From an uncultured Planctomycetota bacterium (GTDB lineage Bacteria; Planctomycetota; Planctomycetia; Isosphaerales; Isosphaeraceae), in contig CAWGMQ010000007.1 in the NCBI GenBank assembly GCA_963823665.1, forward strand, positions 608,001 through 672,000: 64,000 nt of DNA, given 5' to 3'. The stretch's first letter is position 1. The number at the start of each line of letters is the position of its first letter. The notes beneath the pieces were generated by a model. It was given only the letters and a program-made list of their open reading frames with translations, did not search any database and was not told where the DNA came from. The position numbers were made by a program, and so were the translations under genes. Below, piece by piece: positions 7,427 through 57,916 of the stretch.

Positions 7427-7676
7427 TAGTACGCCGCCCCCACCCGGTCGACAGGCATCGCTCCTCCGCGTCCCTCACGTCCCTGCTTCCGACACGAATG
7501 ATCGCTGTCGCCCATCAGCCGCCAGCGTAACCCGGAGCCCGCTCTCATGGCAAGCGAACCACTCATATACCATCCATCCATTCTTGCATTGAATTATAGC
7601 TTCCCGCGTCGCGAATCTCTAGCGGATTCTAGCTCCGCCTTTCAGCCCGGCGTCCCCCCCGCACGTCGGAGCCGCC

Positions 7677-7826
7677 GCTCGAATCGCTACCGCCGTGCCG
7701 GATAGTCGCCTTTTGCTCCGCGAAAGTGCATCCCCTCTTGAATCCCAAGCGTCGTGCCGCATAGTCGCCTTTCGCCCCGCGAAAGTGCGTCCCCGCTCCT
7801 CGCAGCGACCGCTCGAATCGCTACCG
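7677..7826. repeat. REP-like cluster: two copies of ATAGTCGCCTTTYGCYCCGCGAAAGTGC and two copies of GCTCGAATCGCTACCG
   Basis: Copies at ~7702-7729 and ~7761-7788, each with a CTTT(C/T)GC...GCGAAAG hairpin; 16-mer at 7677 and 7811. Confidence 0.7.
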
Positions 7827-15105: not shown

Positions 15106-15612
15106 ATCAGTATACATTCCTATTCAAATAAGCTTGGAAGCCTGGCCCGAAGTCCCGCGACCCCGCGACCGGGTCCTGACGTCAAGCGATCGAATAACGT
15201 TCATCAGAATGTTGACGAGTGGAAAGGCACATCCCGGATGTGGTGAATGGAAGAGATGAGAAAGAACTGCGATTCGAGCCACGGACCAACCAGCATGGTT
15301 GGTTACGCAGGCGAAGGTCAGCTTCGCGACGCGGGCCGGGCCGGCATCACGCCGCACCGCCGGGTAGGGGCCAAGCGACCGAGCCGCCCACAGCGGCGGC
15401 GCTCCCTCCCCACGACGACTGACAACGGCCGACTCGCAATTGATCTCCTATACTATTATGCGCCGATTTGGGCCCGACAAATCTCTAAACCGCACTCTCT
15501 TACGATGGTGTATAAGCGCAACCTCATTCAGCACAAGTGATTGAGATCGGAAGAATTTCACACTGAAATGCCCGTTCAATACGGTTCGAAAAGTCTAGTA
15601 GGGTGGGTGCAA

Positions 15613-17159
15613 CTACCCCTGTGAACATGCAGATTTAATTGTCATAACCTCTTTTGCCGAAAAGGATTGGTAGGTTCGCGCTGGATCAATTCGTCCGGAC
15701 AAGGAGGTCCAATGGTTCTCCCATCCAAACTCGACCCATTCGCGGAGGAGGCAGCTCCGGCGGTCATGGCCCGGATCGCCCTGGATTGGATGATCGAACG
15801 CACTTCGATTGACCCCATTCTTGATGAGGTGTCCGAGGGACAATACACGCGAGAATTTTTGCTCGGTCATTTCGTTCAGGTGATGTGTGATGTCGCCTGC
15901 GGCTTTCGGCGCTCCCCGCGGGAGGCATTCCTGAAGCGCCAACTGCACCTCGTGGCTTCGCTGTCCGCTTTCTACCGCAAGCTGGGTCGGATGGAACCTG
16001 GCGTAGCCGCCGCCATCGTACGAGAGACCGCCAGTCGAGCCCGCGAACTCATCTCCGCTGCTGATTGCCTCCTGCCCGAGCCGATCCCGGGATATACAGC
16101 AAGGATCCTCGACGGCAATATCCTGACAGGGACCGATCATCGCATCAATGAACTGCGCTCGACTCGTTCGGCGGCCCTGCCGGGCATGTCGCTGGCCATT
16201 TACGAGCCGGTCAGTGGCCTGGTGCTCGACCTCATCCTTGAGGAGAACGCCCACACCCAGGAGCGCTCGCTGCTGGATCAGGTGGTCATCGCGCCGGGCC
16301 AGCTCTGGATCATGGATCGTAACTTCTGCGTCCGGAGCTTCGTGTTTCGGATCCTGCGAACCGAAGCGTTCTTCTTGGTCCGCTGGCATTCTTCCACCAT
16401 GCCGTTCCAGGCGATCAAGCCGTTGCGGTCGGTCGGACGCTGCAAGGCCGGCGAGATTCTTGAGCAAGCAATCTGGGTCGATGATCCGGAATGCGAGGGG
16501 CGTCGCTATCGCCTGCGACGGATCGTCTTGAGGTTGGACCAACCCACCCGCGACGGGGAGACCGAGATCATCTTGATAACTAACCTCCCGGACACGGCCT
16601 CGGCGGAGTTGTGCTGCCAGGCCTACTGCGGACGATGGGAAATTGAGAAGCACTTCCAGAAGTTGACCGACCTTCTGCATTGCGAAATCCCCACGCTGGG
16701 ATACCCTCGAGCAGCTCTGTTCGGCTTCTCCATGTCTGTAATTGCCGGAAACGGCTTGGCCGTCTTGAAGGGGAATCTGCGAGCGGTCCACGGCGACGAG
16801 ATGGTCAATGAGGTGTCGAATCACGCCCTGGTCAATGACATCGCCGAGGTTTACCCCGGGATGATGATTGCCGCACCACCGTCGGTTTGGTCGTTTCTGG
16901 ACGGCTGCGTGGCGGGCGAAGTGGCCGGACTGCTCAGCGCCTTGGCCGCCAAGGTGCCCGTGGACCGGATGCTCCGATCGCGACGGGGCCCGAAGAAGCC
17001 CAGGAAGACCAAAAAGACTTCCGGGAGCAGGATTCATCACGTTGCCACCAAGAAGCTCCTGGACAAGTCCCGCGGAGCCCCTGCCGCGGGAACAAAGGGA
17101 TCAAAGCATAGTAGAATCACAGTTTAGCTAATTTCGCATCTGCATGTTCACAGGGGTAG
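15613..17159 (+). mobile_element. Complete IS4-family insertion sequence (1547 bp)
   Basis: Perfect 22-bp TIRs CTACCCCTGTGAACATGCAGAT (15613-15634 and 17138-17159); 10-bp target duplication GTGGGTGCAA (15603-15612 and 17160-17169). Confidence 0.95.
15712..17127 (+). CDS. IS4-family DDE transposase
   Basis: RILDGN (D), IMDRNF (D) and YCGRWEIEKHF (YREK signature); AGGAGG RBS before ATG 15712. Confidence 0.92.
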   Translation: MVLPSKLDPFAEEAAPAVMARIALDWMIERTSIDPILDEVSEGQYTREFLLGHFVQVMCDVACGFRRSPREAFLKRQLHLVASLSAFYRKLGRMEPGVAAAIVRETASRARELISAADCLLPEPIPGYTARILDGNILTGTDHRINELRSTRSAALPGMSLAIYEPVSGLVLDLILEENAHTQERSLLDQVVIAPGQLWIMDRNFCVRSFVFRILRTEAFFLVRWHSSTMPFQAIKPLRSVGRCKAGEILEQAIWVDDPECEGRRYRLRRIVLRLDQPTRDGETEIILITNLPDTASAELCCQAYCGRWEIEKHFQKLTDLLHCEIPTLGYPRAALFGFSMSVIAGNGLAVLKGNLRAVHGDEMVNEVSNHALVNDIAEVYPGMMIAAPPSVWSFLDGCVAGEVAGLLSALAAKVPVDRMLRSRRGPKKPRKTKKTSGSRIHHVATKKLLDKSRGAPAAGTKGSKHSRITV

Positions 17160-17700
17160 GTGGGTGCAACCCTCCGACCGTGATGCGACATCGAGTGGCG
17201 GGTTGCACCGACTCGGCGGAGTGGTGGTCGGGCTTCAGCCTGACGACCCGGCCCGATAGCTCTTCTCATCCGTTGCACTTTCTTGCACTCCATTGCACTA
17301 ATCTCGAAGAATTCTCGTTCCTCCCACTCGCGGTTCTGAGCCCAGGCCAAGGGTTTGCGTCGCACATTCGCAGCCAGCGCCAGCGAAAGCGCCCATCAGC
17401 TCCACAGGACCAACCATGTCACCCCAATGCTCCGCGCGTTATATGTCGTGCTCATTGTTGTGCACATTTGCCAATCGGCCTGAACTGCCCGATTCGAGTA
17501 GCGACCGGCCCAGTGGCGCGAAAGATGGGAAAGCCGTCCAACGCGAGAAGCATTCCGCCCGCCGCGCGTGTTTCTTCTTCGTGACCTTGGTCTTCCTTCT
17601 GTTCAAACTCCCTTCTTCGGCGTATCTGCGGTTCGACGTCCCCCGCCATGTCAAACGGCAGCGTGGCCGCGCTCCGCAAGCTGCAAATAAGCAGAGGTGG

Positions 17701-18372: not shown

Positions 18373-18520
18373 CGTAGCCCGGCGTGTCACCGCCGGGAGC
18401 AGACCAATGCCACCCAAACAACCCGAGCCCCGCAAGGGGCGACATCGTATAGCCCGGCGTGTCAACGCCGGGGAAACAACCGACGAATCCAAACCACCCG
18501 AGCCCCGAATCGGGCGACAC
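18373..18520. repeat. BIME-like tandem of two ~75-bp units with alternating palindromes
   Basis: TAGCCCGGCGTGTCAMCGCCGGG followed by ACCCGAGCCCCG....GGGCGACA, present twice. Confidence 0.75.
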
Positions 18521-22561: not shown

Positions 22562-22996
22562 ATGAGCACGCCCACCGCCACGGACCGGTTCGTCCTCGAC
22601 GGTTCGGTCACGCTCGCGTGGCTCTTCCACGACGAGCAGGATCCGTACGCCGACGCGATCGTGGCCAGGCTCCCTGACATCGAGATGCACGTGCCCCGGC
22701 TCTGGCATCTAGAGGTCGCCAACGTCCTGGTCGTCGGCGAGCGCCGGGGCCGTTGTACGCAGGCCGACACGACGAGCTGGCTCGGCTTCCTCGCCGGGTT
22801 GCCCGTCCTGGTCGACGCAGCGACGGAGGCACAGGCGTGGTCGGTCACGATCAACCTGGCCCGACAGCATGGCCTGACGGAATACGACGCCGCTTACCTG
22901 GAGCTCGCCTTGCGACGGGGGTTGCCCCTGGCGACCCTCGACGCCAAGCTCGAGGCAGTGGCGACGGCTGCCGGGGTGGCGCGCTACCAGCCATGA
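22562..22996 (+). CDS. vapC: PIN-domain (VapC-type) toxin
   Basis: FVLDGSVTLAW..., EVANVL, LTEYDAAYLELA, LATLD. Confidence 0.9.
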   Translation: MSTPTATDRFVLDGSVTLAWLFHDEQDPYADAIVARLPDIEMHVPRLWHLEVANVLVVGERRGRCTQADTTSWLGFLAGLPVLVDAATEAQAWSVTINLARQHGLTEYDAAYLELALRRGLPLATLDAKLEAVATAAGVARYQP

Positions 22997-23069
22997 AAGG
23001 GAAAAGGTGCCAGAAAGGGAAAAGGAAAGGGAAAAGGTGCCAGGAACCAATTCGCCCGGACGAGAACGG
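22996..23069 (+). repeat. Partial copy (left end) of the GGAAAAGGTGCCAGGAACC element, with stuttered end
   Basis: aaagggaaaaggtgccag-aaagggaaaagg-aaagggaaaaggtgccaggaaccaattcgcccggacgagaacgg. Confidence 0.85.
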
Positions 23070-23554: not shown

Positions 23555-23604
23555 CGACGTACGACGGGGACATCCCTTGCGACGTACGACAGGGACATCC
23601 CTTG
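23555..23604. repeat. 25-bp tandem direct repeat, 2 copies
   Basis: CGACGTACGACRGGGACATCCCTTG twice. Confidence 0.85.
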
Positions 23605-23685: not shown

Positions 23686-25565
23686 CTAACTTGCCCAGTC
23701 AACCGCCACGTCCAGGGCTGTCCCCTGCGCCCCACCGGTCGGCTGGGAGATCGCCTTGCCTTTCAGGAGCGCATCGACATCCCGCCAAAGGGCCTCCCAT
23801 GCCTTCTGCTCGTCGGCGAAGAGCTTTTTGAGAGCATCCCGCTCACGGATGCCGGCGAGATCGGGGTCAACCTTCCAGTGCCCAAGGTTCTGGACGACGA
23901 CGGGGCGGGCCCGGGGACCTGGGCTTTGAAGGATCTTGCCCCAGTCGGCGAGCTCGGCCGTCAGCCAGTCGCGCGCCTGGTCGCGTAGCCGGCGGCGGGC
24001 GGCCTCGTCCGGCGGTGGGACGTCCTTCGATTGACCCGAGCCAGCCAAGGCGGCGGCGCAAACGGCGTTGTAGCGATGGCGGAGTCCAGGATCTCGCCAG
24101 CCTCCTCGGATCGGCCTCGGGCCTTTAGCGCCCGGCCGAAACAACCCAGATGAAGGCCGTTCCGGGCACGGATGAGGCAGAGCTGGCGAAAGACCTCGAT
24201 CGCCTCGTCCGACTCGCCCCGGTTTTCCAGGGCATGGGCCAGCTCGTGGGCCGTCTCGGGACGGATCGCGCGCGCGGCAGTAAAGTAGCGGATGGCCTCG
24301 TCGGTCCGGTCGACCGCCTCCAGCACGCGGGCCAGGTTGTAATTGACCCAGACGTCGTCCGGGTGCCGGCGCTGTGCGCAGCACCGCCTCGGCCGCCGCG
24401 CGGTCCCCGGCCGTATCCAGGGCCAACCCAGCAGGTTCAGGCTCACGGGGCCGAGCTCGTCGAACCGGGCGTCTTTCGCCAGGGCGATCAGCTCGGCCTC
24501 GGACCCGCAGGCGTCCAGCCGCGCCACGGCGTCGGCGGTTGCGCCCTCGGTCGCCTTGCGGATGATCTCGGTCGCGGCCCGGCCCGTGAACGCCGGCATC
24601 CCGGTGAGGACCTCGCAGAGGATCGATCCCAGCGCGAAGACATCGGCCTGCTCGTCGCCCCGATCGGTCTGGCCCCGCGCCTGCTCGGGGGGCATGTAGC
24701 TCGGCGTGCCCATGATCGAGCCGGCGCGGGAGTGGTCCCGGTCCGAGCCGCTCTGCGCCGTGGTGATCAGGGTCTCCTCGGGCGGCTCCTGGCCCGCCCT
24801 CGCATCGGCGGCGACACCGCCCCGCGGCAGGACCCGCGCCAGGCCCCAGTCCATCACCTGGACCTCGCCGAAGCTGCCGACCATCACGTTGGAGGGCTTG
24901 AGGTCGCGATGGATCACCCCGCGGGTGTGGGAGTAGGCCATTGTCTGCGCGATGGCCGCGAAGATCGACAGGAACCGGGGCAGGTCGTCGGCCGGCCCTG
25001 AGCGGTCCTCGAGCAGGTCGGCGAGTGTCTGCCCTTTCACCAGCTTCATGCTGAAGAACGGCCGGCGGTCGGCGAAGGTGCCCAGCTCGTAGATCGGCAC
25101 CACGCCCGGGTGCTGGAGCTGGCCGCCGATCTGGGCCTCCTCGACGAAGCGGCGGACCAGGTCGGCCTTGTCATGGAGGTCGGCGCGCAGGACCTTGATG
25201 GCGACGTCGCGGCCCAGGTCGGGGTCGCGGCCCTTGAGGACTGCCCCCATGCCGCCGCGGGCGATCTCACCGTCGATGCGGTAGCGGATCGACCGGTCGG
25301 CGTCAGTTGAATCGGGTCGGACGACCGGCCCCGGGGTCTCGCCCGGCGCCGTGTCCCGCAGGAGCACGCGGGGGACGGTACCGATGCTCTGTGCGATGGA
25401 GTCGAGGACGCCGGGGCCGGCCAGCTCGAACGTGCCGGTCGTCTCGTGCGACGCGGGCGACGTGCTGGGGAGCGCGGCCCCCATCAGGCAATTCGGGCAA
25501 AGCCCGCGCGGGGCGTCGGCGGGCAGCGTCGCGCCGCAATCCGGACACGTTCGCTGAGGTTTCAT
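23686..25565 (-). pseudogene. Ser/Thr kinase-TPR gene with apparent internal deletions and frameshifts
   Basis: MKPQRTCPDCG zinc ribbon; ARGGMGAV, HRDLKPSN, DWGLA. The C-lobe stops at ELIALAKD with no subdomain XI Arg and no TM. TPR pieces and the YNAxCAAALAG module lie in different frames. Confidence 0.75.
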
Positions 25566-26047
25566 GGCAAGGTCCTCCCCGGGGTTCCCGACGACCCCTC
25601 GTCGTCTTCCTCTACACATAAGAACGGGAAATCGCCCCGAGGTCACACGAATCCGCGCGGTTTCATCGAGCGAGGGCCGCGAACAGGGCCCGGGAACAGG
25701 GTATTCGATGACGTTTCGGGAAGCGATCGGGGCACGGTTGACCTCGCCTCCAGCTCCGGAGCGAGCGTGAATTCGCAGCTTCGCCGATCTGCGCGAGCCT
25801 ACTCTACGGCATGTCGGCCCGGCGTCGCAACCGACGGCCGCCAGAAGGCCGAGCCTATTTCACCGGCGCCGACGAACCCTACGAAAAACTCACGAATCGC
25901 CGGCAGATCCTTGTGATCACCTTCCTGCGGCGCGGATAATCCGCCGGGTTCTTGAATCAACGTACAATTGGACATTTTACAAGCTGCCCGCTCAGCGACC
26001 GAATACTTGTAAGGCGCCGGGGTTCGAGCTGCGGGAGGTGAGTTGAG

Positions 26048-28222: not shown

Positions 28223-29327
28223 TCAGGGCTCGTTCCTAGTCCCGTCCGTGGGCTTCGCCAGCTTGGTCCGCCATTCGGCGGCCTTGTCCTTCTTGCCCCA
28301 CTCCTCGTAAAGCCGGATGACACGTTCGCCGCCCTCCGCGAGGCGCGGCATGCCAGGCGGGTGGATCTTGGCCTCGCGCGCCTTCATGCCCTCGTAGCCC
28401 GAGACAATCAGCGGCTCGGCCTCGGCGTACTTCTTCTGGCCCAGCAGGCTGTCGCCGAGCAGGCTGCGGGTGTTGAAGGTGGTCCACTCGTCGGGCTGCA
28501 CCTTCTCGCGGATGGCCAGGCACTCGCGCAGAACGGGCTCGGCCTCGGCCCATTTGCCCTGATGGATGAGGCTCAGGCCCCGTACGGCCATGATGCCGGC
28601 GGTCCTGGGATTGTCAGCCCCGAACCGCTTACGAGCGCCGTCCAGGCCGGCGCGGAACAACGGCTCGGCCTCGGGGCCGCGGCCGGTCTGATCCAGGAGG
28701 TTGGCCAGGTCGAGCGTCAAGTCTAGGGTCAATTCGCCGTCCGATCCCTGTGCCTTGCGGTAGCCCTCGAGCGCCCGGCGAAAGAGTGGTTCGGCCTCGG
28801 TCGGTCGGTCGGCGTTCAGGGCATGAGCGAGGTTGTGGACGATCGCGAGCGTGTTGAGGTGGTCGGGGACCAGCTTCGGCTCGAGCAGCTTGAGGGCCTG
28901 CTCGAACAGTGGGACGGCCTCGCCGGCGCGGCCGATCCGCACGAGGACGGAGGCCAGGTCGAACGTCAAGACGAGGGTCAAGTCGCCGTCCGGTCCCTGC
29001 GCCTTGCGGTAGCCCTCGAGCGCCTGGCGGAACAGCCGCTCGGCCTCGGCCGGCTTGGAAGGTGCCAGCTCGCGGGCCCGCTTGTGGAGGCTGGCGAGTG
29101 CTTCGAGCGTGTCGGGCTTGCCGTCGGGCATGGCAGTCGCAGGGGCGAGAGGCTCCCGCGGAGGCACAGACGGCTTTGACCCGGCCGGAGCCTCGCGTTC
29201 CTGGACCGATGCGGTTCCACTCGGCTTCCTCCCCGTCGGTTGGGAGATCGCCTCGCCCTTCAGGAGCACATCGACGTCCTTCCAGAGTGCCTCCCAGGCC
29301 TTCTGTTCGTCGGCGGGGAGCTTCTTG
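28223..29327 (-). pseudogene. 5'-truncated C-terminal TPR portion of a Ser/Thr kinase-TPR gene
   Basis: Begins mid-module (KKLPADEQKAWEALWKDVD) directly against the repeat at 29328; EAEPLFR TPRs; PDEWTTFNTRSLLG...YAEAEPLIVSGYEGM terminal module. Confidence 0.75.
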
Positions 29328-29545
29328 GAGGGGAAAAGGTGCCAGGAACCAATTCGTCCGGACCAGAACGGGTTCCGTAGGGCAATCCGTTTGACGATCG
29401 CGCGATACATGTAAACCCACGTCCAAATGTCGAAAGCGCGATGCTGCTCCGCGAAGGTGCATCCCCGTGCCGCTTCATGCCTCTACTAATCGTGGGGATA
29501 ATGTTCGCGGAATCCGGACCCGGGCGCGATTCCCGCCGCCTTCAC
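29328..29545 (+). repeat. ~215-bp repeat, copy A (GGAAAAGGTGCCAGGAACC ... degenerate tmRNA-like 3' end)
   Basis: Colinear, highly similar alignment with 30566-30784. Confidence 0.9.
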
Positions 29546-29761
29546 TTCTTCGCCGGCCTTGGCACGAGTAACATCCAGACTATGGGCCGGGTCATGGCTC
29601 GCTGCTCGCTGACTTCGTCGAACCGGAGCTCGCCGCGCCGGAGGGTTGCCGACTCGTCGTACCGGTCTCGGCCCCGACGAACTTGAGGCGTGCCCGGCCG
29701 AGGCCGATCTGCGCCACGCTGGTATCCCGCTGGAGAGCCGAGCAGCGCTGGAGTCCCGGCC

Positions 29762-30397
29762 TCAGCCGGTCCTTTGCGACGGCAGGATATCTGACACGGC
29801 GATCAGTCCGAGCTGCTGCCCGTCGATTACGACCGGCACGCACTGCCCCTCCGGAAAGACTTCGGTGGAAAGATAGCCGGCCGGAGCCGGGTCGGTATAG
29901 ACCTCGACCTGGCGATCGCCCAGGTTGACGATCCAGTAAATGGGAATCCTGGCCGGCCCGTACACCTCGGAAGCCAGAGTGCGATCCTCCGCGAGGCTGG
30001 TGTCGGCGACTTCGACGATCAGGGCGATCTCGTTTGGACCCGGTTGGTGATCCTCGTAATCGCGGATCGTCCCTCGCACGACGCACCGATCGGGTTCGGG
30101 TTCGCTATCCCGCCCAGGGAGCCGGACCGGCTTGGCTGCCGCGACATGATATCGATCGCGAGGAATAACCCGGGTCAGCTCCGCCCCGCAGAGTTCGTCG
30201 GCCACCCGATGAGGCGGATTCTGAGTCGTCTTGGCTACCAGGTATCCGTTGATGAGATGGAATTGATTGCGGGACTTCAAGCCGCCTGATTCGACCAGCG
30301 CTTCGTATTCGTCGACGCTCATCCGGTAGAGCCGCGACGGGATCCACCCCGACTGCGACTCTGGAATCGTTTGTTGACTCGGCGCGATCGCGGACAT
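29762..30397 (-). CDS. Uma2/DUF820 family protein (restriction-endonuclease-like fold)
   Basis: YRMSVDEYEALVESG, EPEPD, LIVEVADTSLAEDR, IPIYWIVNLGDRQVEVYTDP. Confidence 0.9.
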   Translation of the reverse strand: MSAIAPSQQTIPESQSGWIPSRLYRMSVDEYEALVESGGLKSRNQFHLINGYLVAKTTQNPPHRVADELCGAELTRVIPRDRYHVAAAKPVRLPGRDSEPEPDRCVVRGTIRDYEDHQPGPNEIALIVEVADTSLAEDRTLASEVYGPARIPIYWIVNLGDRQVEVYTDPAPAGYLSTEVFPEGQCVPVVIDGQQLGLIAVSDILPSQRTG

Positions 30398-30548
30398 GCG
30401 AGCTGATCCTTCCCTTCGGCTGCGGGCGTGATTGGGCACTTTCGCTGCTCACTGCATTGTACTCTGGTAACAGACCCAGTTGAAGCCGCCGCAGCCGGGC
30501 CTCACTGCTCGCTCCCGAAGCGCTGACTCCGTTGTCTGGGTGGCTAGT

Positions 30549-30784
30549 GAGGGGAAAAGGTGCCAGAGGGGAAAAGGTGCCAGGAACCAATTCGCCCGGA
30601 CGACAACGAGTTCCGTAGGGCAATCCGTTTGACAATCGCGCGATACATGTAAATCCCCGTCCAAATGTCGCAAGCGCGATGCCGCTCCGCGAAGGTACAT
30701 CCTCGTCCCTCTTCACACTGCAACTGATCTTGGGGAAAACGTTCGCGGAATCCGGGACGCGGGTGCAATTCCCGCCGCCTCCAC
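30549..30784 (+). repeat. ~215-bp repeat, copy B, with a duplicated 17-bp left end and an intact tmRNA-like T-arm/acceptor strand
   Basis: GAGGGGAAAAGGTGCCA x2; ends GGACGCGGG-TGCAATT-CCCGC-CGCCTCC-AC (30755-30784). Confidence 0.9.
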
Positions 30785-30807
30785 ATCCTATGTTGTAATT
30801 CGTCTGA

Positions 30808-31269
30808 TTATGATGCGTTACGACTACAAGCGGTGCGCGGCGAGACGCCCAGAACCTGGGCACACTCAGAGAGTGTCAAGCCGCCGAAATGTCGTAGCTG
30901 GACGAGCTCAGCAAGTTTTGGCTGGTCGACCGCCAGCCGTGAGAGGGCAATATCGAGTGCTTCGATGTTGGTATCTTCCGGCGTTGTAGCCAGTTGCTCG
31001 GTTTCAAGATCGACGCGGCGCCCGCCTCCTCGCTTGGCGGCGTTCCTGGCGCGGGCGTGGTCGACGAGGATCCGACGCATCGCCTGCGCGGCCGCTTTCA
31101 AGTAGTCGCTGCGCGACGCGAACGACCGCTCGCCGCCGAGCTTCAAAAATACTTCGTGAACAAGAGCCGTGGCGTCGAGGGTATGGCCGGGCTTTTCCGA
31201 TGCGAGCTTCGCCGCCGCGAGCTGGCGGAGTTCGTCGTACACGTACGGAAGGAGTTCCGCGGGGTTCAT
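30808..31269 (-). pseudogene. ECF sigma factor (TIGR02999/ECF43-like), 3'-truncated
   Basis: LLPYVYDELRQLA, HTLDATALVHE, AMRRILVDHAR. It ends VSPRTACSRNAS instead of ...W.YARA.L (compare 53898..54470) and no kinase follows. Confidence 0.75.
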
Positions 31270-31277
31270 TTCATCAT

Positions 31278-32006
31278 TCAGTTGGCGGAGGCGATCACTC
31301 GTTGCCAGCGTGCCGGCACGGTGTCCCATGCCGATTGGTAGGTTACTTCCAGAGGCACCATGACGTACAGCTCTGGTGCGAGAAAGAGCGGCATGTCGGG
31401 CAACGCGTCCCCGACGCCGACAGTTTCAATGTAGGCCCTCGTGCAGAGGTCCGCATCGTAAGCGACCATGGTGAGCGGTTTCTCCGGAGGTAGTTCAAAC
31501 GGCTCGTCAGTGAATTGTTCCCAGATCGCTGAGTGAATGCCGTTCGGATCCCGGCGACCGGGAGGAAACGGGTCGAGCAAAAGCAGATGAATCCGTTGCT
31601 CCATCAATTCGCAGGCCTTCTGTACGAACGCTCGGAAGGAGTTGGCATTGTTTTTGTTTCCCGGCGAGACGATTTCGACGATGGCGACAATGTGATCCCC
31701 GCTGACGTGACGGACTGCCACCATGCTTTTCTTGCGCTGTTGGAACTCGCCGGGGAGTTCGGTGTAGTACGTCGTCTTGGGACGTGCCTGAGTCGCGACA
31801 CCCCCGCCGTTGTAAGCCGTGGCGACCGTCCGGTCTTGCAACGTCAAGACATCCGGCCCAAACCCGGCAGCCACTTGCTCAGCAAGGGCATAATAATCGG
31901 GTGGCAGCAACCCTCGGTTCAGCGCGCGTTTGATTTCCGAGATCCACTCGTGGTGGAAATCGTGGTAGATCCCGGCATCCACGCGAGTCCAGTCGTGCAT
32001 TGGCAT
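31278..32006 (-). CDS. DUF4058 family protein
   Basis: MPMHDWTRVDAGIYHDFHHEWI, VAIVEIVSPGNK, IHLLLLD, LPDMPLFL. Confidence 0.85.
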   Translation of the reverse strand: MPMHDWTRVDAGIYHDFHHEWISEIKRALNRGLLPPDYYALAEQVAAGFGPDVLTLQDRTVATAYNGGGVATQARPKTTYYTELPGEFQQRKKSMVAVRHVSGDHIVAIVEIVSPGNKNNANSFRAFVQKACELMEQRIHLLLLDPFPPGRRDPNGIHSAIWEQFTDEPFELPPEKPLTMVAYDADLCTRAYIETVGVGDALPDMPLFLAPELYVMVPLEVTYQSAWDTVPARWQRVIASAN

Positions 32007-32167: not shown

Positions 32168-32540
32168 GCGGTGTCAGCCTTTGTTTTCGGTCGCTCAGTT
32201 GAATAACGGATGGTAGCGAAGTCCCGATCAGAGGCGGGCTACAAGATCAGCGGGCGACGGAAGCACGGTCTCGAATTTTTGGCCCGTGAACGCGGACGAC
32301 ATTCCAATCGCATGCTCGCGCCATTGAGTATCTCAAACCGGCGATGTTCATCATAAATATTTCGCCAATAAAAGTTCAGGCCGTCGATGTCGGAACAACT
32401 CTGAGTCAAGACGTATTGTAATTCACCTGCGTCGCTGCCGGAATCCCGACCAATACCCGATCCGCCGCCGATCTTTAGTGCGAATGGGGCCGACGAGCGC
32501 TCAGCTTCGTCTATCAAGGCTGATCGGCGCCTACTCGGGG

Positions 32541-32626
32541 TTGTCCGGGCCTCGTAGCTCCGAGCAACGTTGAGTTCCTCGACGAGCGTGCAGTAGTTCA
32601 GCACCGATCGCTTGGATCGGACCCGT
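32541..32626. repeat. ~87-bp direct repeat, copy 1 (copy 2 at 35001-35086)
   Basis: Ungapped alignment at offset 2460: TTGTCyGGrCCTCGTAGCwCCGAGCAACGTTGArTTCCTCGACGAGCGTGCArTAGTTCAG... Confidence 0.9.
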
Positions 32627-32843
32627 ACGATCATACGTCCAAGTCCCACCGCCCCGACTCCGTGTAACATCAAATCCCGTCGTTGGTTGCGAATGCGACC
32701 GGCGACGGGATTTGAACTCTTGTTGGGGGTAGTTGTTCGAACGGCGGATTTCAAACTCTGCATGGAATCAGGTAAAATCTCGCCGTCTGAACCAATGTCG
32801 ATACAGACCCCGGACGCGGTCAAAATGGCATGAAATAATCGAC

Positions 32844-34903: not shown

Positions 34904-35000
34904 CGCGACCGCTCAAACACAAAACAAATGATAGCATCTTTGGCCAAATTCATTGATTGGTCAGTTCTCCAGGTGGTATACGCCATCGCGCTGAGAACTG

Positions 35001-35086
35001 TTGTCTGGACCTCGTAGCACCGAGCAACGTTGAATTCCTCGACGAGCGTGCAATAGTTCAGGAACGATCGTTTGGATCTGGTCCGT
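35001..35086. repeat. ~87-bp direct repeat, copy 2, fused to a tRNA 3' half
   Basis: Aligns with 32541-32626. Confidence 0.9.
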
Positions 35087-35119
35087 GAGGTCGTGGGTTC
35101 AAATCCCGTCGCCCCGACT
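35080..35119 (+). other. 3' half of a tRNA (Pro-like); att-site remnant, not a full tRNA
   Basis: GGTCCGTGAGGTCGTGGGTTCAAATCCCGTCGCCCCGAC: variable loop AGGTC, T-loop TTCAAAT, acceptor 3' strand CGCCCCG-A; no D-arm or 5' acceptor strand upstream. Confidence 0.75.
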
Positions 35120-53321: not shown

Positions 53322-53378
53322 GGGAAAAGGTGCCAGGAACCAATTCGCCTGGACCAGGACGGGTTTCGTAGGGCAATC
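53322..53378 (+). repeat. Partial copy (left ~57 bp) of the 215-bp element
   Basis: gggaaaaggtgccaggaaccaattcgcctggaccaggacgggtttcgtagggcaatc. Confidence 0.85.
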
Positions 53379-53901: not shown

Positions 53902-54470
53902 ACGAAGTCACCCGCATCTTGAGCGCCATCGAATCAGGAAACCCCCAGGCCGCGTCGCAGTTGTTGCCGCTGGTTTATGACGAGCTGCGTCGGCTTGCGG
54001 CCGGACACATGGCGAACGAGTCTCCCGGCCACACACTCGGCGCCACCGCCCTCGTTCATGAGGCCTATCTGCGACTCGTTGGTCCCGTCGGAGATCAGAT
54101 GTTCGCCAGTCGCGGGCATTTCTTCGCCGCCGCCGCCGAGGCAATGCGCCGGATCCTGGTTGACTCCGCACGGCACAAACGGGCCAGCAAACGGGGTGGT
54201 GGTCTGGTCCGATCTCCTGTCGAAGTTGACCGATTGCCGGCGTCGCCCGTCGACTCGGATTCTTGGCTCGACCTTGATGACGCCCTCACAGCGTTCGAGA
54301 ACGTCGATCAAACCGCGGCAGAATTCGCCAAACTCCGCATCTTCGGCGGGCTATCGGTCGAGGATGCTGGCGAATCTCTGGGTATGTCTCGGGCGACCGC
54401 ATTCCGGACCTGGACGTATGCCCGCGCCTACTTGACGGCCGCTCTTGCCGACCATTCCGAAAACTCTTGA
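53898..54470 (+). CDS. ECF sigma factor (TIGR02999/ECF43-like)
   Basis: MNEVTRILSAIESGNPQAASQLLPLVYDELRRLA, HTLGATALVHEAYLRL, AAEAMRRILVD, WTYARAYL. Confidence 0.93.
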   Translation: MNEVTRILSAIESGNPQAASQLLPLVYDELRRLAAGHMANESPGHTLGATALVHEAYLRLVGPVGDQMFASRGHFFAAAAEAMRRILVDSARHKRASKRGGGLVRSPVEVDRLPASPVDSDSWLDLDDALTAFENVDQTAAEFAKLRIFGGLSVEDAGESLGMSRATAFRTWTYARAYLTAALADHSENS

Positions 54471-54531
54471 GACTCTTTGGGCTCCATTTACGCCTTGTGG
54501 GGGTGAGTACAAAACCACGGAGCCAATTGCC

Positions 54532-57500
54532 ATGCCTGTCGAGCCCAATCTCGTGCGTGACGTTTTTCTCTCGGCCGCGGAACTGCCACGGGCTGATCGA
54601 GAGCGCTATCTCGCCGATCGCTGCGGCAGCGATGCCGAGCTGCGTGCCGCAGTCGAGCGCCTCTTGGCCGCTCACGAAGAACCCGCCCGCATCCTCGAGC
54701 AGGGTGCGGCCCGCGAGGTGGAGCACCCGTTAGCGACAACTCACCGTCCGATCGGCGGCACGGTCGGCGAAGATGATGATCACACCGGGGAACAATCGAC
54801 GGACTTGACGGCCGGCACGACGCTGGCTGCCCACGCGTCCGAACGTGCGAGCAGCTTCGTTCAGGGGCAGGTCATCGCTGGGCGATACACCTTGCAGGAG
54901 GTCCTGGGCGAAGGCGGCATGGGCACCGTCTACCGCGCCCTTCAGACCGAGCCGGTCAAGCGTCAGGTCGCGCTGAAAATCATCAAGGTTGGGATGGATT
55001 CGCGCACAGTCCTCGCTCGCTTCAATGCCGAACGCCAGGCCCTGGCCTTGATGGACCACCCCAACATCGCCCGCGTCTACGATGGCGGAACGACGAGCAC
55101 AAGCCCGAAATCCGAAGCTCGAAATTCGAAGGACCAAGGCGCGACGCCTGTTGCCTCGGTTTTCGGATTTGGTGCTTCGGATTTCTGCAGCGGTCAGCCA
55201 TTCTTCGTGATGGAACTGGTGCAAGGCGTGCCGATCACGGGGTACTGCGACGCGAAAAGGCTCTCGCTTGCGGCCCGGCTGGAGCTTTTCGTCTCCGTCT
55301 GCCAGGCCGTGCAACACGCCCACCAGAAAGGCATCATCCACCGTGACCTGAAACCGAGCAACGTGATGGTGACCGAGGTCGACGGCCGGCCGGCGCAGAA
55401 GGTGATCGACTTTGGTGTCGCCAAGGCCGTTGAGTTTGACCTCACCGACCAGAGCTTGGGCGACACCGGGGCCATCGTCGGCACGCCGGCGTACATGTCG
55501 CCCGAGCAGGCAGACCCGACATCGATGGATATCGACACCCGCACGGATATTTACGCGCTCGGGGTGATTCTCTACGAGCTGCTCGCCGGCTCACCCCCGC
55601 TCGATCCGGCGCAGTTCCGGCGCGGGGCGATCCTGGAAATGCTGCGGATGGTCCGCGAAGTTGATCCTCCCAGGCCGAGCACAAAGGTCAGCACGTCGGA
55701 CGCTCTGCCGAATCTCGCAGCTTCGCGAGGCATTGAGCCGGCGCAGTTAAAGCGGGCGCTGTCGGGCGACTTGGACTGGGTCGTGATGAAGGCGCTCGAG
55801 AAAGACCGAACGCGTCGTTACGAAACGGCCAACGGCTTCGCGGCCGACATCTCGCGTCATCTTTCGTCCGAGCCGGTGCTGGCCGCGCCGCCGAGCCGTG
55901 CGTACCGGGCTCGGAAGTTTGTGCGGAAGCACCGGGGCGCTGTGATTGCAGCGGGTCTCATACTCGCGGTGTTGCTCGCTGGAATTGCGGGCACGTCCTG
56001 GGAATGGTTCGCAGCCCGGCGGTTGGCTTCCGCCGAGCGCGTGGCCAGGCTCGATGCGCAGAAACAACAGACCCGCGCCGAGGAACGCGAAACGCAGGCG
56101 ATTGACGCCGTGAAGCGGTTTGGCGACGCCGTCGCGGGCGAGCCCGCCCTCAAGAACAGCCCGGATCTCGAAGCCTTGCGCAAGCGACTCTTGAAGGAGC
56201 CGCTTGCGTTTTTCAAGGATCTCCGCGACCGTCTCCAGGCGGACAAATATACGCGACCCGAGTCGTTGTATCGAACGGCAACAGCAAGCTCCGAGCTGGG
56301 AATCCTAACCGCCGAAATCGGCGACAAGCAGGACGCGCTGATCGCTCACGGGGAGGCGCTCGAGATTTTTCTGAACCTGGCCGATTCGAATCCCGCCATC
56401 ACCGAGCTCCAGCGCGACCTGGCGATCACCCACAACCAAATCGGCATGCTGCTTCGCGGAGACCGGGAATCTGGCGGAGGCGATGATGGCTTATGAGAGA
56501 GCGCTGGCGATCTGGCGGAAGCTGGCCGTCGCCAAGCCGGCCGTCACCGAGTTCCAGCGCAACCTGGGTGACTTGCACAACAACGTCGGAAACGTGCTAG
56601 TTGCCGCCGGGAAGAGGGCCGAGGCGATGAAGGCACACGAGGCGGCGCGGTCAATCCGGCAAAAGCTGGCCGACTCGAACCCCGCCAATACCGACTTTCA
56701 GAGCCGCCTGGCGAACAGCCACAACAACATCGGTAGCCTGCTGGCCGAAAACGGGCACCCGGCCGAGGCGATCGATGCGCACCGATTGGCGCTCCAGATC
56801 CAGCAGAAGCTGGCCGACGCCAACCCCGCCGTGTTCGAGCTCCAGCTTGCCCAGGCGACTAGCCGCAACGTCATCGGCCTCCAACTCGAACGCACCGACC
56901 CCGCCGACGCGAAGACGAATTACGAAGCGGCCTTGACGATCTTTCGGAAGCTGTCAACCGACAACCCTTCGGTCACACGGTTACAACATAATTGCTCGGC
57001 GACTCTCACCAATATCGGTAACCTGCTGTCCGCCATCGGGCAGCGGGCCGAGGCGATGAAGGCGCACGAGGAATCACTCGCGATCCTGCGGAAGCTGGCG
57101 AGCGAGCACGCTGAGGCGCCCGAATACGCCAGCGCTCTCGGCGCCTCCCTCAATAACCTGGCGCATATGGACCTTGCCGCGAGGCGATTTGGAGAGGCCC
57201 ACGATCGGCTCCGCGAGGCAGTCAAATGGCAGCGGAAGGCCCTGGCTGCCTATCCCGCCCATCCGGACTATCGACAGTTCCTGGGAAACCACCTCCGCAA
57301 TCTGCGCCAGGCGGCCATCGGGCTGGGTGATTCCGAGGGCGCAGCCGAGGCCGAGCGCGAGCTTGCACAGCTCCGCGATTCCGACCCGGCGATTGTGGTG
57401 CTCGACGCGCGGCTGGCCGCGGTCATCAAAGGCACGGAACAGTCAAGGAATCAAGACGAGCGGCTCGCTCTGGCCCAGCGAGCTTACGACAAGGCTCTAC

Positions 57501-57916
57501 ACGCGACGTCCGCACGCCTCTGGGCCGAGGCTCTCACGGCCAATCCCGCGCTCGCCGCCGACCGCACCGCCCAGCATCCGTATAACGCCGCCTGCGCCGC
57601 CGCGCTGGCCGGCTCCGGGCAGGCCAAGGACGACCCCGCGCCCGATGAAGCCGCCAAGGTGAAGCTTCGCAAACAGGCCCTCGAATGGCTCAAGGCCGAG
57701 CATGCGGTCTGGTCGAAACTCCTCGAATCCGACGCCGTGAAAGCCAGGCCCCTGGTGGCAAAGGCGCTCGCGGACTGGCAGAAAGATACGGACCTCGCCG
57801 GTATCCGCGATAAGAAGGAGCTGGCCAAACTGCCTGAGGCGGAACGCTCGGCGTTCCAGCAACTCTGGTCCGACGTCGACAGCCTGCTGACCAAGGCGAG
57901 CAGCGGAAAGCCATAG
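54532..57916 (+). CDS. Ser/Thr kinase-TM-TPR protein; frameshift near 56455; in-frame palindromic insert in the kinase domain
   Basis: GEGGMG, VALKII, HRDLKPSN, DFGVAK; TPRs; YNAACAAALAG...DLAGIRD terminal module. Confidence 0.9.

Follow-up and report, generated by a model that had tools for sequence, protein, structure and literature searches.

A sequence of about 220 bp stands on both sides of a single Uma2 gene in a planctomycete genome, in the same orientation each time, and genes are broken next to it. Is such a repeat a mobile element in its own right, or a patchwork of signals that belong to other systems? We addressed this question in a stretch of 64,000 nucleotides (hereafter the window; G000:C7:608001–672000), which belongs to an assembly (G000) of 16.46 Mb in 12 contigs, 91.9% complete and with 3.5% contamination. 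Its gene content, and the phylum most frequent among look-alike clusters, likewise suggest a planctomycete. Our results indicate that the repeat is a local patchwork and not a new dedicated element.

Architecture of the repeat

Copies A (29328–29548) and B (30566–30787) proved to be genuine direct copies, 87% identical over 222 columns (E = 8e-75), and they flank Uma2 in colinear order as the initial annotation had described. The partial copies with the same left end that it had reported are also real: C (23029–23068) and D (53322–53378) have just the left 40 and 57 bp in common with A and B. The stuttering noted at this end was found as 17 nt repeated 2.1 times at 30549 and as units of 18 and 12 nt at 22995–23024, the units being partial copies with the same outer start and differing inner stops. 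Copy C starts within the stop codon of a vapC-like PIN gene. In copy A the ssrA part is decayed and the downstream arm is absent, and the similarity between A and B ends 3 nt beyond the ssrA end (Table 1). When B was searched against the genome, 27 matches emerged among the 40 of 79 candidates that were scored; among these only A spans most of B, and the others each cover one module.

Table 1 Repeat copies and adjoining genes in the window (positions are those of the window)
Feature	Position	Strand	Description
Copy C	22995–23068	+	18-nt and 12-nt start-anchored partial copies, then full TIR, ~20 nt shared inner flank
Kinase-TPR gene, 3′ part	28223–29327	−	Pfam TPR; cut at outer edge of TIR A
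Copy A	29328–29548	+	TIR 29328–29350, SnoaL stub 29372–29410 (minus strand), arm, decayed ssrA core
Uma2 (PF05685) gene	29762–30397	−	Between A and B, apparently whole
Copy B, left end	30549–30608	+	17-nt stutter, TIRtron-family TIR 30566–30588, short inner extension
Copy B, middle	30609–30686	−	SnoaL-like (PF12680) gene: upstream region and first 13 codons
Copy B, upstream att arm	30694–30752	+	Parts match G000:C3:725.8k and G000:C6:1649.1k
Copy B, att core	30753–30784	+	ssrA 3′ fragment (T arm and acceptor strand)
Copy B, downstream arm	30785–30830	+	AT-rich, homologous to arm following other ssrA cores
ECF sigma factor gene	30831–31329	−	Last 18 codons missing
Copy D	53322–53378	+	TIR and inner flank reaching into SnoaL stub, 57 bp

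The unit is a chimera of three modules: the TIR of a TIRtron, the stub of a SnoaL gene and an orphan ssrA att junction. It had been described as non-coding, which needs correction, because 30610–30648 (minus strand) represents the first 13 codons of a SnoaL-like gene; 30609–30686 is 82–83% identical to whole SnoaL-like genes at G000:C10:2458.8k and in genome G030. No intact parent locus, with SnoaL beside an ssrA core, was found. Nothing marks Uma2 as a precise cassette, and 29541–29800 gave no match in the DNA searched.

Both of the gene breaks annotated beside the repeat could be pinned by comparison. Two kinase-TPR paralogues match the TPR frame up to 29325–29327 and then run on into the kinase/TPR region; the frame is therefore the 3′ part of a kinase-TPR gene that was cut at ~29327, at the left end of A. 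The ECF gene has lost its 3′ end to the right of B at 30830/30831, where an intact orthologue in the sister genome G001 (87% identity) continues for 18 more codons. This second break coincides with the end of the downstream arm and lies away from any TIR. The neighbours of the repeat copies are fragments cut inside genes, and the window also holds other broken genes and split reading frames. Kinase-TPR genes are split into separate frames at 23686–25646 and 54445–57916, through either decay or assembly indels.

Other repeats were also observed in the window. A 59-bp tandem at 7675–7792 has an end resembling 29448–29466 of copy A, and a DDE transposase gene (PF01609) lies between 25-bp inverted repeats at 15610–17162. 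An Acido-Lenti-1 match above the Rfam cut-off was detected at 18426–18472, and at G000:C5:1393k repeats of this kind lie around another Y1 gene. At 23555–23604 and ~23720, where a kinase-TPR paralogue breaks off, a tandem of 25 bp whose core is GGGGACAT is present together with a GGGGACAG motif; these are possibly ends of other TIR families.

The left end is the TIR of a TIRtron

The left end had been read as REP-like. No hairpin fold was found there (z = −0.69 against shuffles), and the palindrome GTTGTAA..TTACGAC to which attention had been drawn is no stronger than in shuffles (z = −0.20). A REP/RAYT end was rejected on the same fold score and on the lack of a GTAG-tagged stem-loop. A structured ncRNA was rejected likewise, the fold signal being absent and Rfam giving only the tmRNA fragment at the repeat.

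The left end is instead the TIR of a TIRtron. TIRtrons, or TIRYTs, carry a Y1 gene between TIRs with the core GGGGWSAS, and their TIRs are found as singles, dimers and clusters (Di Nocera et al. 2013, PMC3733652). At G000:C10:640k, an inverted TIR pair surrounds a Y1 gene that is intact, encodes 225 aa and has the HUH (HWH) and Tyr motifs; a Y1 HUH transposase gene between terminal inverted repeats is the TIRtron layout. The same arrangement is present in G001, around the gene for a 93% identical protein. In the core, GGTGTCAG and GGTGCCAG differ from GGGGWSAS at 1–2 places; the TIRs, like the published ones, are dispersed as singles, dimers and clusters. At one mismatch, searching the genome for the left motif gave 102 matches, with dimers and head-to-head pairs among them, compared with 4 for the reversed control. 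The window repeat itself is a dispersed TIR and not a TIRtron, because its ends are single and co-oriented and no PF01797 match was found in the window. Each unit has one TIR, and not the inverted repeats at both unit ends that make a MITE layout. Miniature head-to-head TIR pairs of 42–70 bp, some of them stuttered, were seen at C11:717792–717861, at C10:2532760–2532809 and several times on G001:C4.

The family extends beyond these two genomes. Among 60 other genomes, 12 contain the exact 15-mer and 28 encode homologues of the enzyme; an inverted pair of related sequence was found at 13 of 18 relatives' loci, counted at a score of 25 or more with no null model. Relatives at 50–60% protein identity have a GGGGTCAG or GGGGACAT core. 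Other Y1 loci in the genome have end motifs of their own, some stuttered.

Genes in the TIRtron layout have mostly been assigned to TnpA-Y1 subclass 2.1, and such TIRYT-type genes occur in ~15% of the species sampled (Quentin et al. 2018, PMC6006769). The Y1 protein found here resembles this subclass in its length (~230 aa), HUH motif, SS tail motif, lack of REP hairpins and association with TIRs. It has NHWH and WSS, and differs in its Tyr motif, which is YVERNA in place of Y---NP, and in having no C-terminal HTH among its Pfam matches, of which PF01797 was the only one.

Inner flanks and orientation of lone TIRs

The statistics that follow rest on 87 TIR copies recovered from the 102 motif matches; a doubtful in-gene match, C10:1687779, is counted in the figures for flank sharing and pair distance and left out of the 28/29 given below. 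Inner flanks are shared from the TIR onward by 22 of the 87 copies, over 27–266 bp at 76–97% identity, with none detected for the other 65. Outer flanks are common to only two copies, and this pair is a TIR dimer match. One family forms a nested series over five contigs, drawn from an HNH operon at its 3′ end, with 29, 57–66, ~97 and 254 bp shared and some internal jumps. Behind one and the same TIR flank, a whole mazE stands at one site and a mid-mazF fragment at another, and DUF433 is found both whole and cut. A partial TIR occurs within 60 nt outside the TIR in 13/86 copies, compared with 2/430 control windows.

The copies are also clustered, with 30 gaps of up to 30 kb against 10.9 in simulations. 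Neighbours 0.2–30 kb apart are co-oriented in 28 of 29 cases, the sole exception being the TIRtron itself, and the 90 exact copies in G001 gave 27/28. Concordance is absent at distances above 30 kb (4/9 and 15/32; 5/10 and 7/24), on which ground a replichore bias was rejected as the source of co-orientation. Outer genes point towards the TIR in 31 of the 38 cases that a crude coding model could call, so the direction of transcription biases TIR orientation in part. Gene-strand bias alone was rejected, as a model built on this outer-gene bias expects only 16–18 of 29 pairs to be co-oriented. Of the flank-sharing pairs, 8/33 are no more than 30 kb apart, compared with 65/3734 of all pairs; a detectable inner flank is common to just 5 of the 29 close neighbour pairs. 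In G001, one local pair sharing 174 bp was found among the 30 loci examined.

Of the captured genes, HNH and SnoaL read towards the TIR and mazE and DUF433 away from it. Capture in both senses fits a DNA route, and retro-copying or DGR-like mutagenesis was rejected on these fragments together with the lack of an adenine bias. A preference for stop codons at the outer TIR edge was rejected too (23/82, compared with 22% in the control). No flank-sharing pair exceeds 95% identity except for one 29-bp match, and some families are shared with G001, so the TIR events are old. An empty target site was found for none of the TIR copies. Loose TIRs are likely to copy, remove and splice the DNA beside them, one end at a time, throughout the genome. 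The locus is a clear record of apparently one-ended behaviour by a class of Y1 enzyme known here from sequence.

The right end is an orphan ssrA core

The right end of B had been likened to the 3′ end of a tmRNA, and alignment to the host ssrA genes bore this out: of the three tmRNA genes in the genome, two have 3′ ends identical to 30753–30784 at 32/32 positions, and the third matches it at 30/31. At three mismatches, the core has 14 matches in the genome, compared with 2 for the control. Some of the orphan cores have the upstream arm of B in common with it, others the downstream arm. Two arms around a core would be the layout of an integrase att junction, and B appears to have it. The downstream arm of B stops a few bases short of the point where other cores have a second core-like site; such a site, ~47 bp after the first, follows many of the orphan ssrA cores in the co-oriented groups of G000 and G001. 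The cores of A and B are co-oriented and 1.24 kb apart, that of A being decayed at several positions.

The three complete tmRNA genes of this one assembly (G000:C10:360462, C10:422392 and C8:2039527) have near-identical tags. The gene on C8 adjoins an ORF that, from its translation, we take to be SmpB-like. One of the tmRNA genes is followed by repeated TGTCAGATAA boxes and by a single-copy ORF of 579 aa, in which Pfam found an HTH only. This ORF has an Atlas feature score of 0.99 to a cluster with PF00589 in 35% of its members, which points to a likely divergent tyrosine integrase. A search of the window for PF00589, PF07508 and homologues of the 579-aa protein returned none, in agreement with the annotation, which had seen no integrase there; Pfam did miss one divergent candidate.

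Core-like duplicates were also seen elsewhere. Four co-oriented orphan ssrA cores lie within 25 kb at G000:C4:2483k–2508k with no nearby integrase; they enclose the gene of a large surface protein and, next to Cmr-like neighbours, a Card1/CARF gene. In G001, four pairs of co-oriented orphan cores, again with no nearby integrase, were found on C4, C5, C8 and C9. A second co-oriented duplicate in the window itself (32540–32659 and 35000–35119; 83% identity) ends in a tRNA-Pro-like 3′ fragment and has no TIR. Its left copy is decayed, and the fragment has 7 matches in the genome, two of them in whole tRNA-Pro genes. Because this pair has a tRNA-Pro-like end and no TIR, att-driven duplication alone can make such pairs.

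A proposed one-ended mechanism and its alternatives

We consider it fairly probable that the repeat is a TIR joined to a cut SnoaL gene and an orphan ssrA att site, likely spread locally by a Y1/HUH enzyme acting in trans, one end at a time. The enzyme would nick one strand at the outer edge of the TIR and hold the 5′ end as a phosphotyrosine, and synthesis from the free 3′-OH would then run across the TIR and on into inner DNA for a variable distance. If the ends were rejoined in place, a stutter or a tandem duplication would result. Joining to a 3′-OH further out would delete the outer neighbour, as in the cut TPR gene, and joining at a nearby site on the same strand would give a co-oriented copy with a captured flank (40 bp in C, 57 bp in D and 220 bp in A/B). 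Here, an old ssrA-targeting island may have ended in a SnoaL gene into which a TIR was joined. This composite would then have been copied, and a tyrosine-integrase crossover at the att core likely reset the right side of A or B; copying and crossover may have come in either order. The A/B right boundary is likely such a crossover. Integrase accretion probably shaped the right side, because this boundary falls 3 nt past the ssrA end and the tRNA-Pro pair is free of TIRs. The chemistry and a nick-extend-rejoin model have been published for TnpA-REP (Ton-Hoang et al. 2012, PMC3333891); for TIRYT-type Y1 enzymes (subclass 2.1), no biochemistry was found in the literature searched.

Integrase accretion is also the main rival for the A/B duplication as a whole. 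Two mini-islands that target ssrA, related to each other and now decayed, could have been stacked in tandem in the manner of CIMEs by an integrase in trans; A and B would be their right ends, with the TIR and SnoaL as passengers and the TIR trimming the left neighbours later. The place where the A/B similarity stops, the two arms of B, the co-oriented groups of orphan cores in both genomes, the TIR-free pair only 2–4 kb away and the likely integrase after one ssrA copy are all consistent with it. However, it leaves C and D, which are anchored on a TIR and have no att, unexplained. This contig has no tmRNA gene, the window gave no match to PF00589, PF07508 or the 579-aa protein, and A is without a downstream arm. 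We regard this origin as rather unlikely.

Another possibility is a duplication of no special kind, made long ago by homologous or illegitimate recombination while this accessory region decayed; the TIR would then be inert and its place at the junctions incidental. The 87% identity, the unbiased substitutions (27 of 199 columns, 15 of them transitions) and the other broken genes in the region would suit such a duplication. Flank sharing on the inner side only, start-anchored stutters and co-orientation in two genomes are not what it would lead one to expect, which makes it improbable.

The initial annotation had raised the possibility of an undescribed hybrid element; in its dedicated form this would need both a HUH end and an ssrA att core to capture cassettes such as Uma2. 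Much of what it saw stands: an HUH-type left end and an ssrA att right end are both present, the two ends of the unit coincide with recombination signals, both junctions break genes, and one whole gene is bracketed by two copies. That a single dedicated element combines them is not supported. A TIR lies within 250 bp of only 2 of the 14 cores, A and B themselves, the next being 3.5 kb away (measured against the 86 recovered TIRs), and in G001 none of 12 cores has a TIR within 1.5 kb. The whole unit was found in none of 60 relatives, with at most 13 candidates scored per genome, and exact gapped patterns gave no TIR-att unit in public metagenome and genome collections, from which this genome's records may have been excluded. 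The middle of the unit, moreover, is an accidental gene stub. TIR and ssrA core are separate families fused at A/B only, and a dedicated hybrid is therefore very improbable.

Assembly error at the junctions or in the duplication is scarcely credible, for A and B differ at 13% of sites, beyond what chimeric assembly yields, and like TIR junctions, some orthologous, occur in the independently assembled G001, even though the assembly is of a metagenome type with the completeness and contamination given above and reading frames are split nearby.

Discussion

TIRtrons and dispersed TIRs have already been published, and the repeat, a chimera of two known signals, is ordinary as a unit. In the TIRtron text drawn on here (PMC3733652), there is no word of captured inner flanks of variable length, of stuttering outside the TIR, of TIRs co-oriented over kilobases or of neighbouring genes being truncated. 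The first three of these features were also absent from the article text of the literature searched.

Several known systems share features with the proposed mechanism. Like TnpA-REP and BIMEs (PMC3333891), it would involve an HUH nick, a 5′-phosphotyrosine, cleavage at a variable distance and local tandem copies by nicking, extension and rejoining, the enzymatic steps being predicted here from the copies. It differs in that no GTAG-hairpin REP is present and the copies bear gene fragments of up to hundreds of bases. In tDNA-targeting islands (Islander, PMC4383910), a tmRNA 3′ fragment serves as the att core, and copy B carries such a fragment at 32/32 identity. CIMEs (PMC5704250) resemble the locus as tandem stacks of integrase-less remnants. 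Islander further asks for a full tDNA within 200 kb on the replicon with an integrase in between, and a CIME retains attL and attR, has lost its integrase and can be excised in trans. Here, by contrast, the site has no tmRNA gene on its contig (the genes are on C8 and C10) and no integrase match nearby, and the scattered cores lie a long way from all three tmRNA genes.

Enzymes of the IS91 family belong to a different HUH group (Y2). Their one-ended transposition, as in IS801 (PMC3189936), combines a fixed end with variable length, capture of adjacent DNA and a transposase in trans; the repeat would work alike without being a member. In that family the ori and ter ends are not inverted and a tetranucleotide terminator is used, whereas the cognate enzyme here is a Y1. 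The study of IS801 attributed most of the end fragments in genomes to later rearrangements and not to one-ended transposition (PMC3189936).

As a tentative generalization, which we put forward as a possibility, TIRYT enzymes may be one-ended, rolling-circle-like splicers and not two-ended transposases. A 23-bp end would prime copying of variable length, rejoined locally on the same strand, and one domesticated gene with ~100 loose ends could then duplicate, delete and shuffle accessory genes, including att sites that would open landing pads away from tmRNA. The TIR-att fusion is a one-off and carries little weight by itself. The locus does suggest a route by which att cores come to sit far from tmRNA. 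The TIR scars of the locus yield a prediction of the strand, the edge and the products, from 12-nt stutters to flank capture; if the generalization is true, TIRYT splicing would be a built-in diversification engine of planctomycete-type genomes of 16 Mb.
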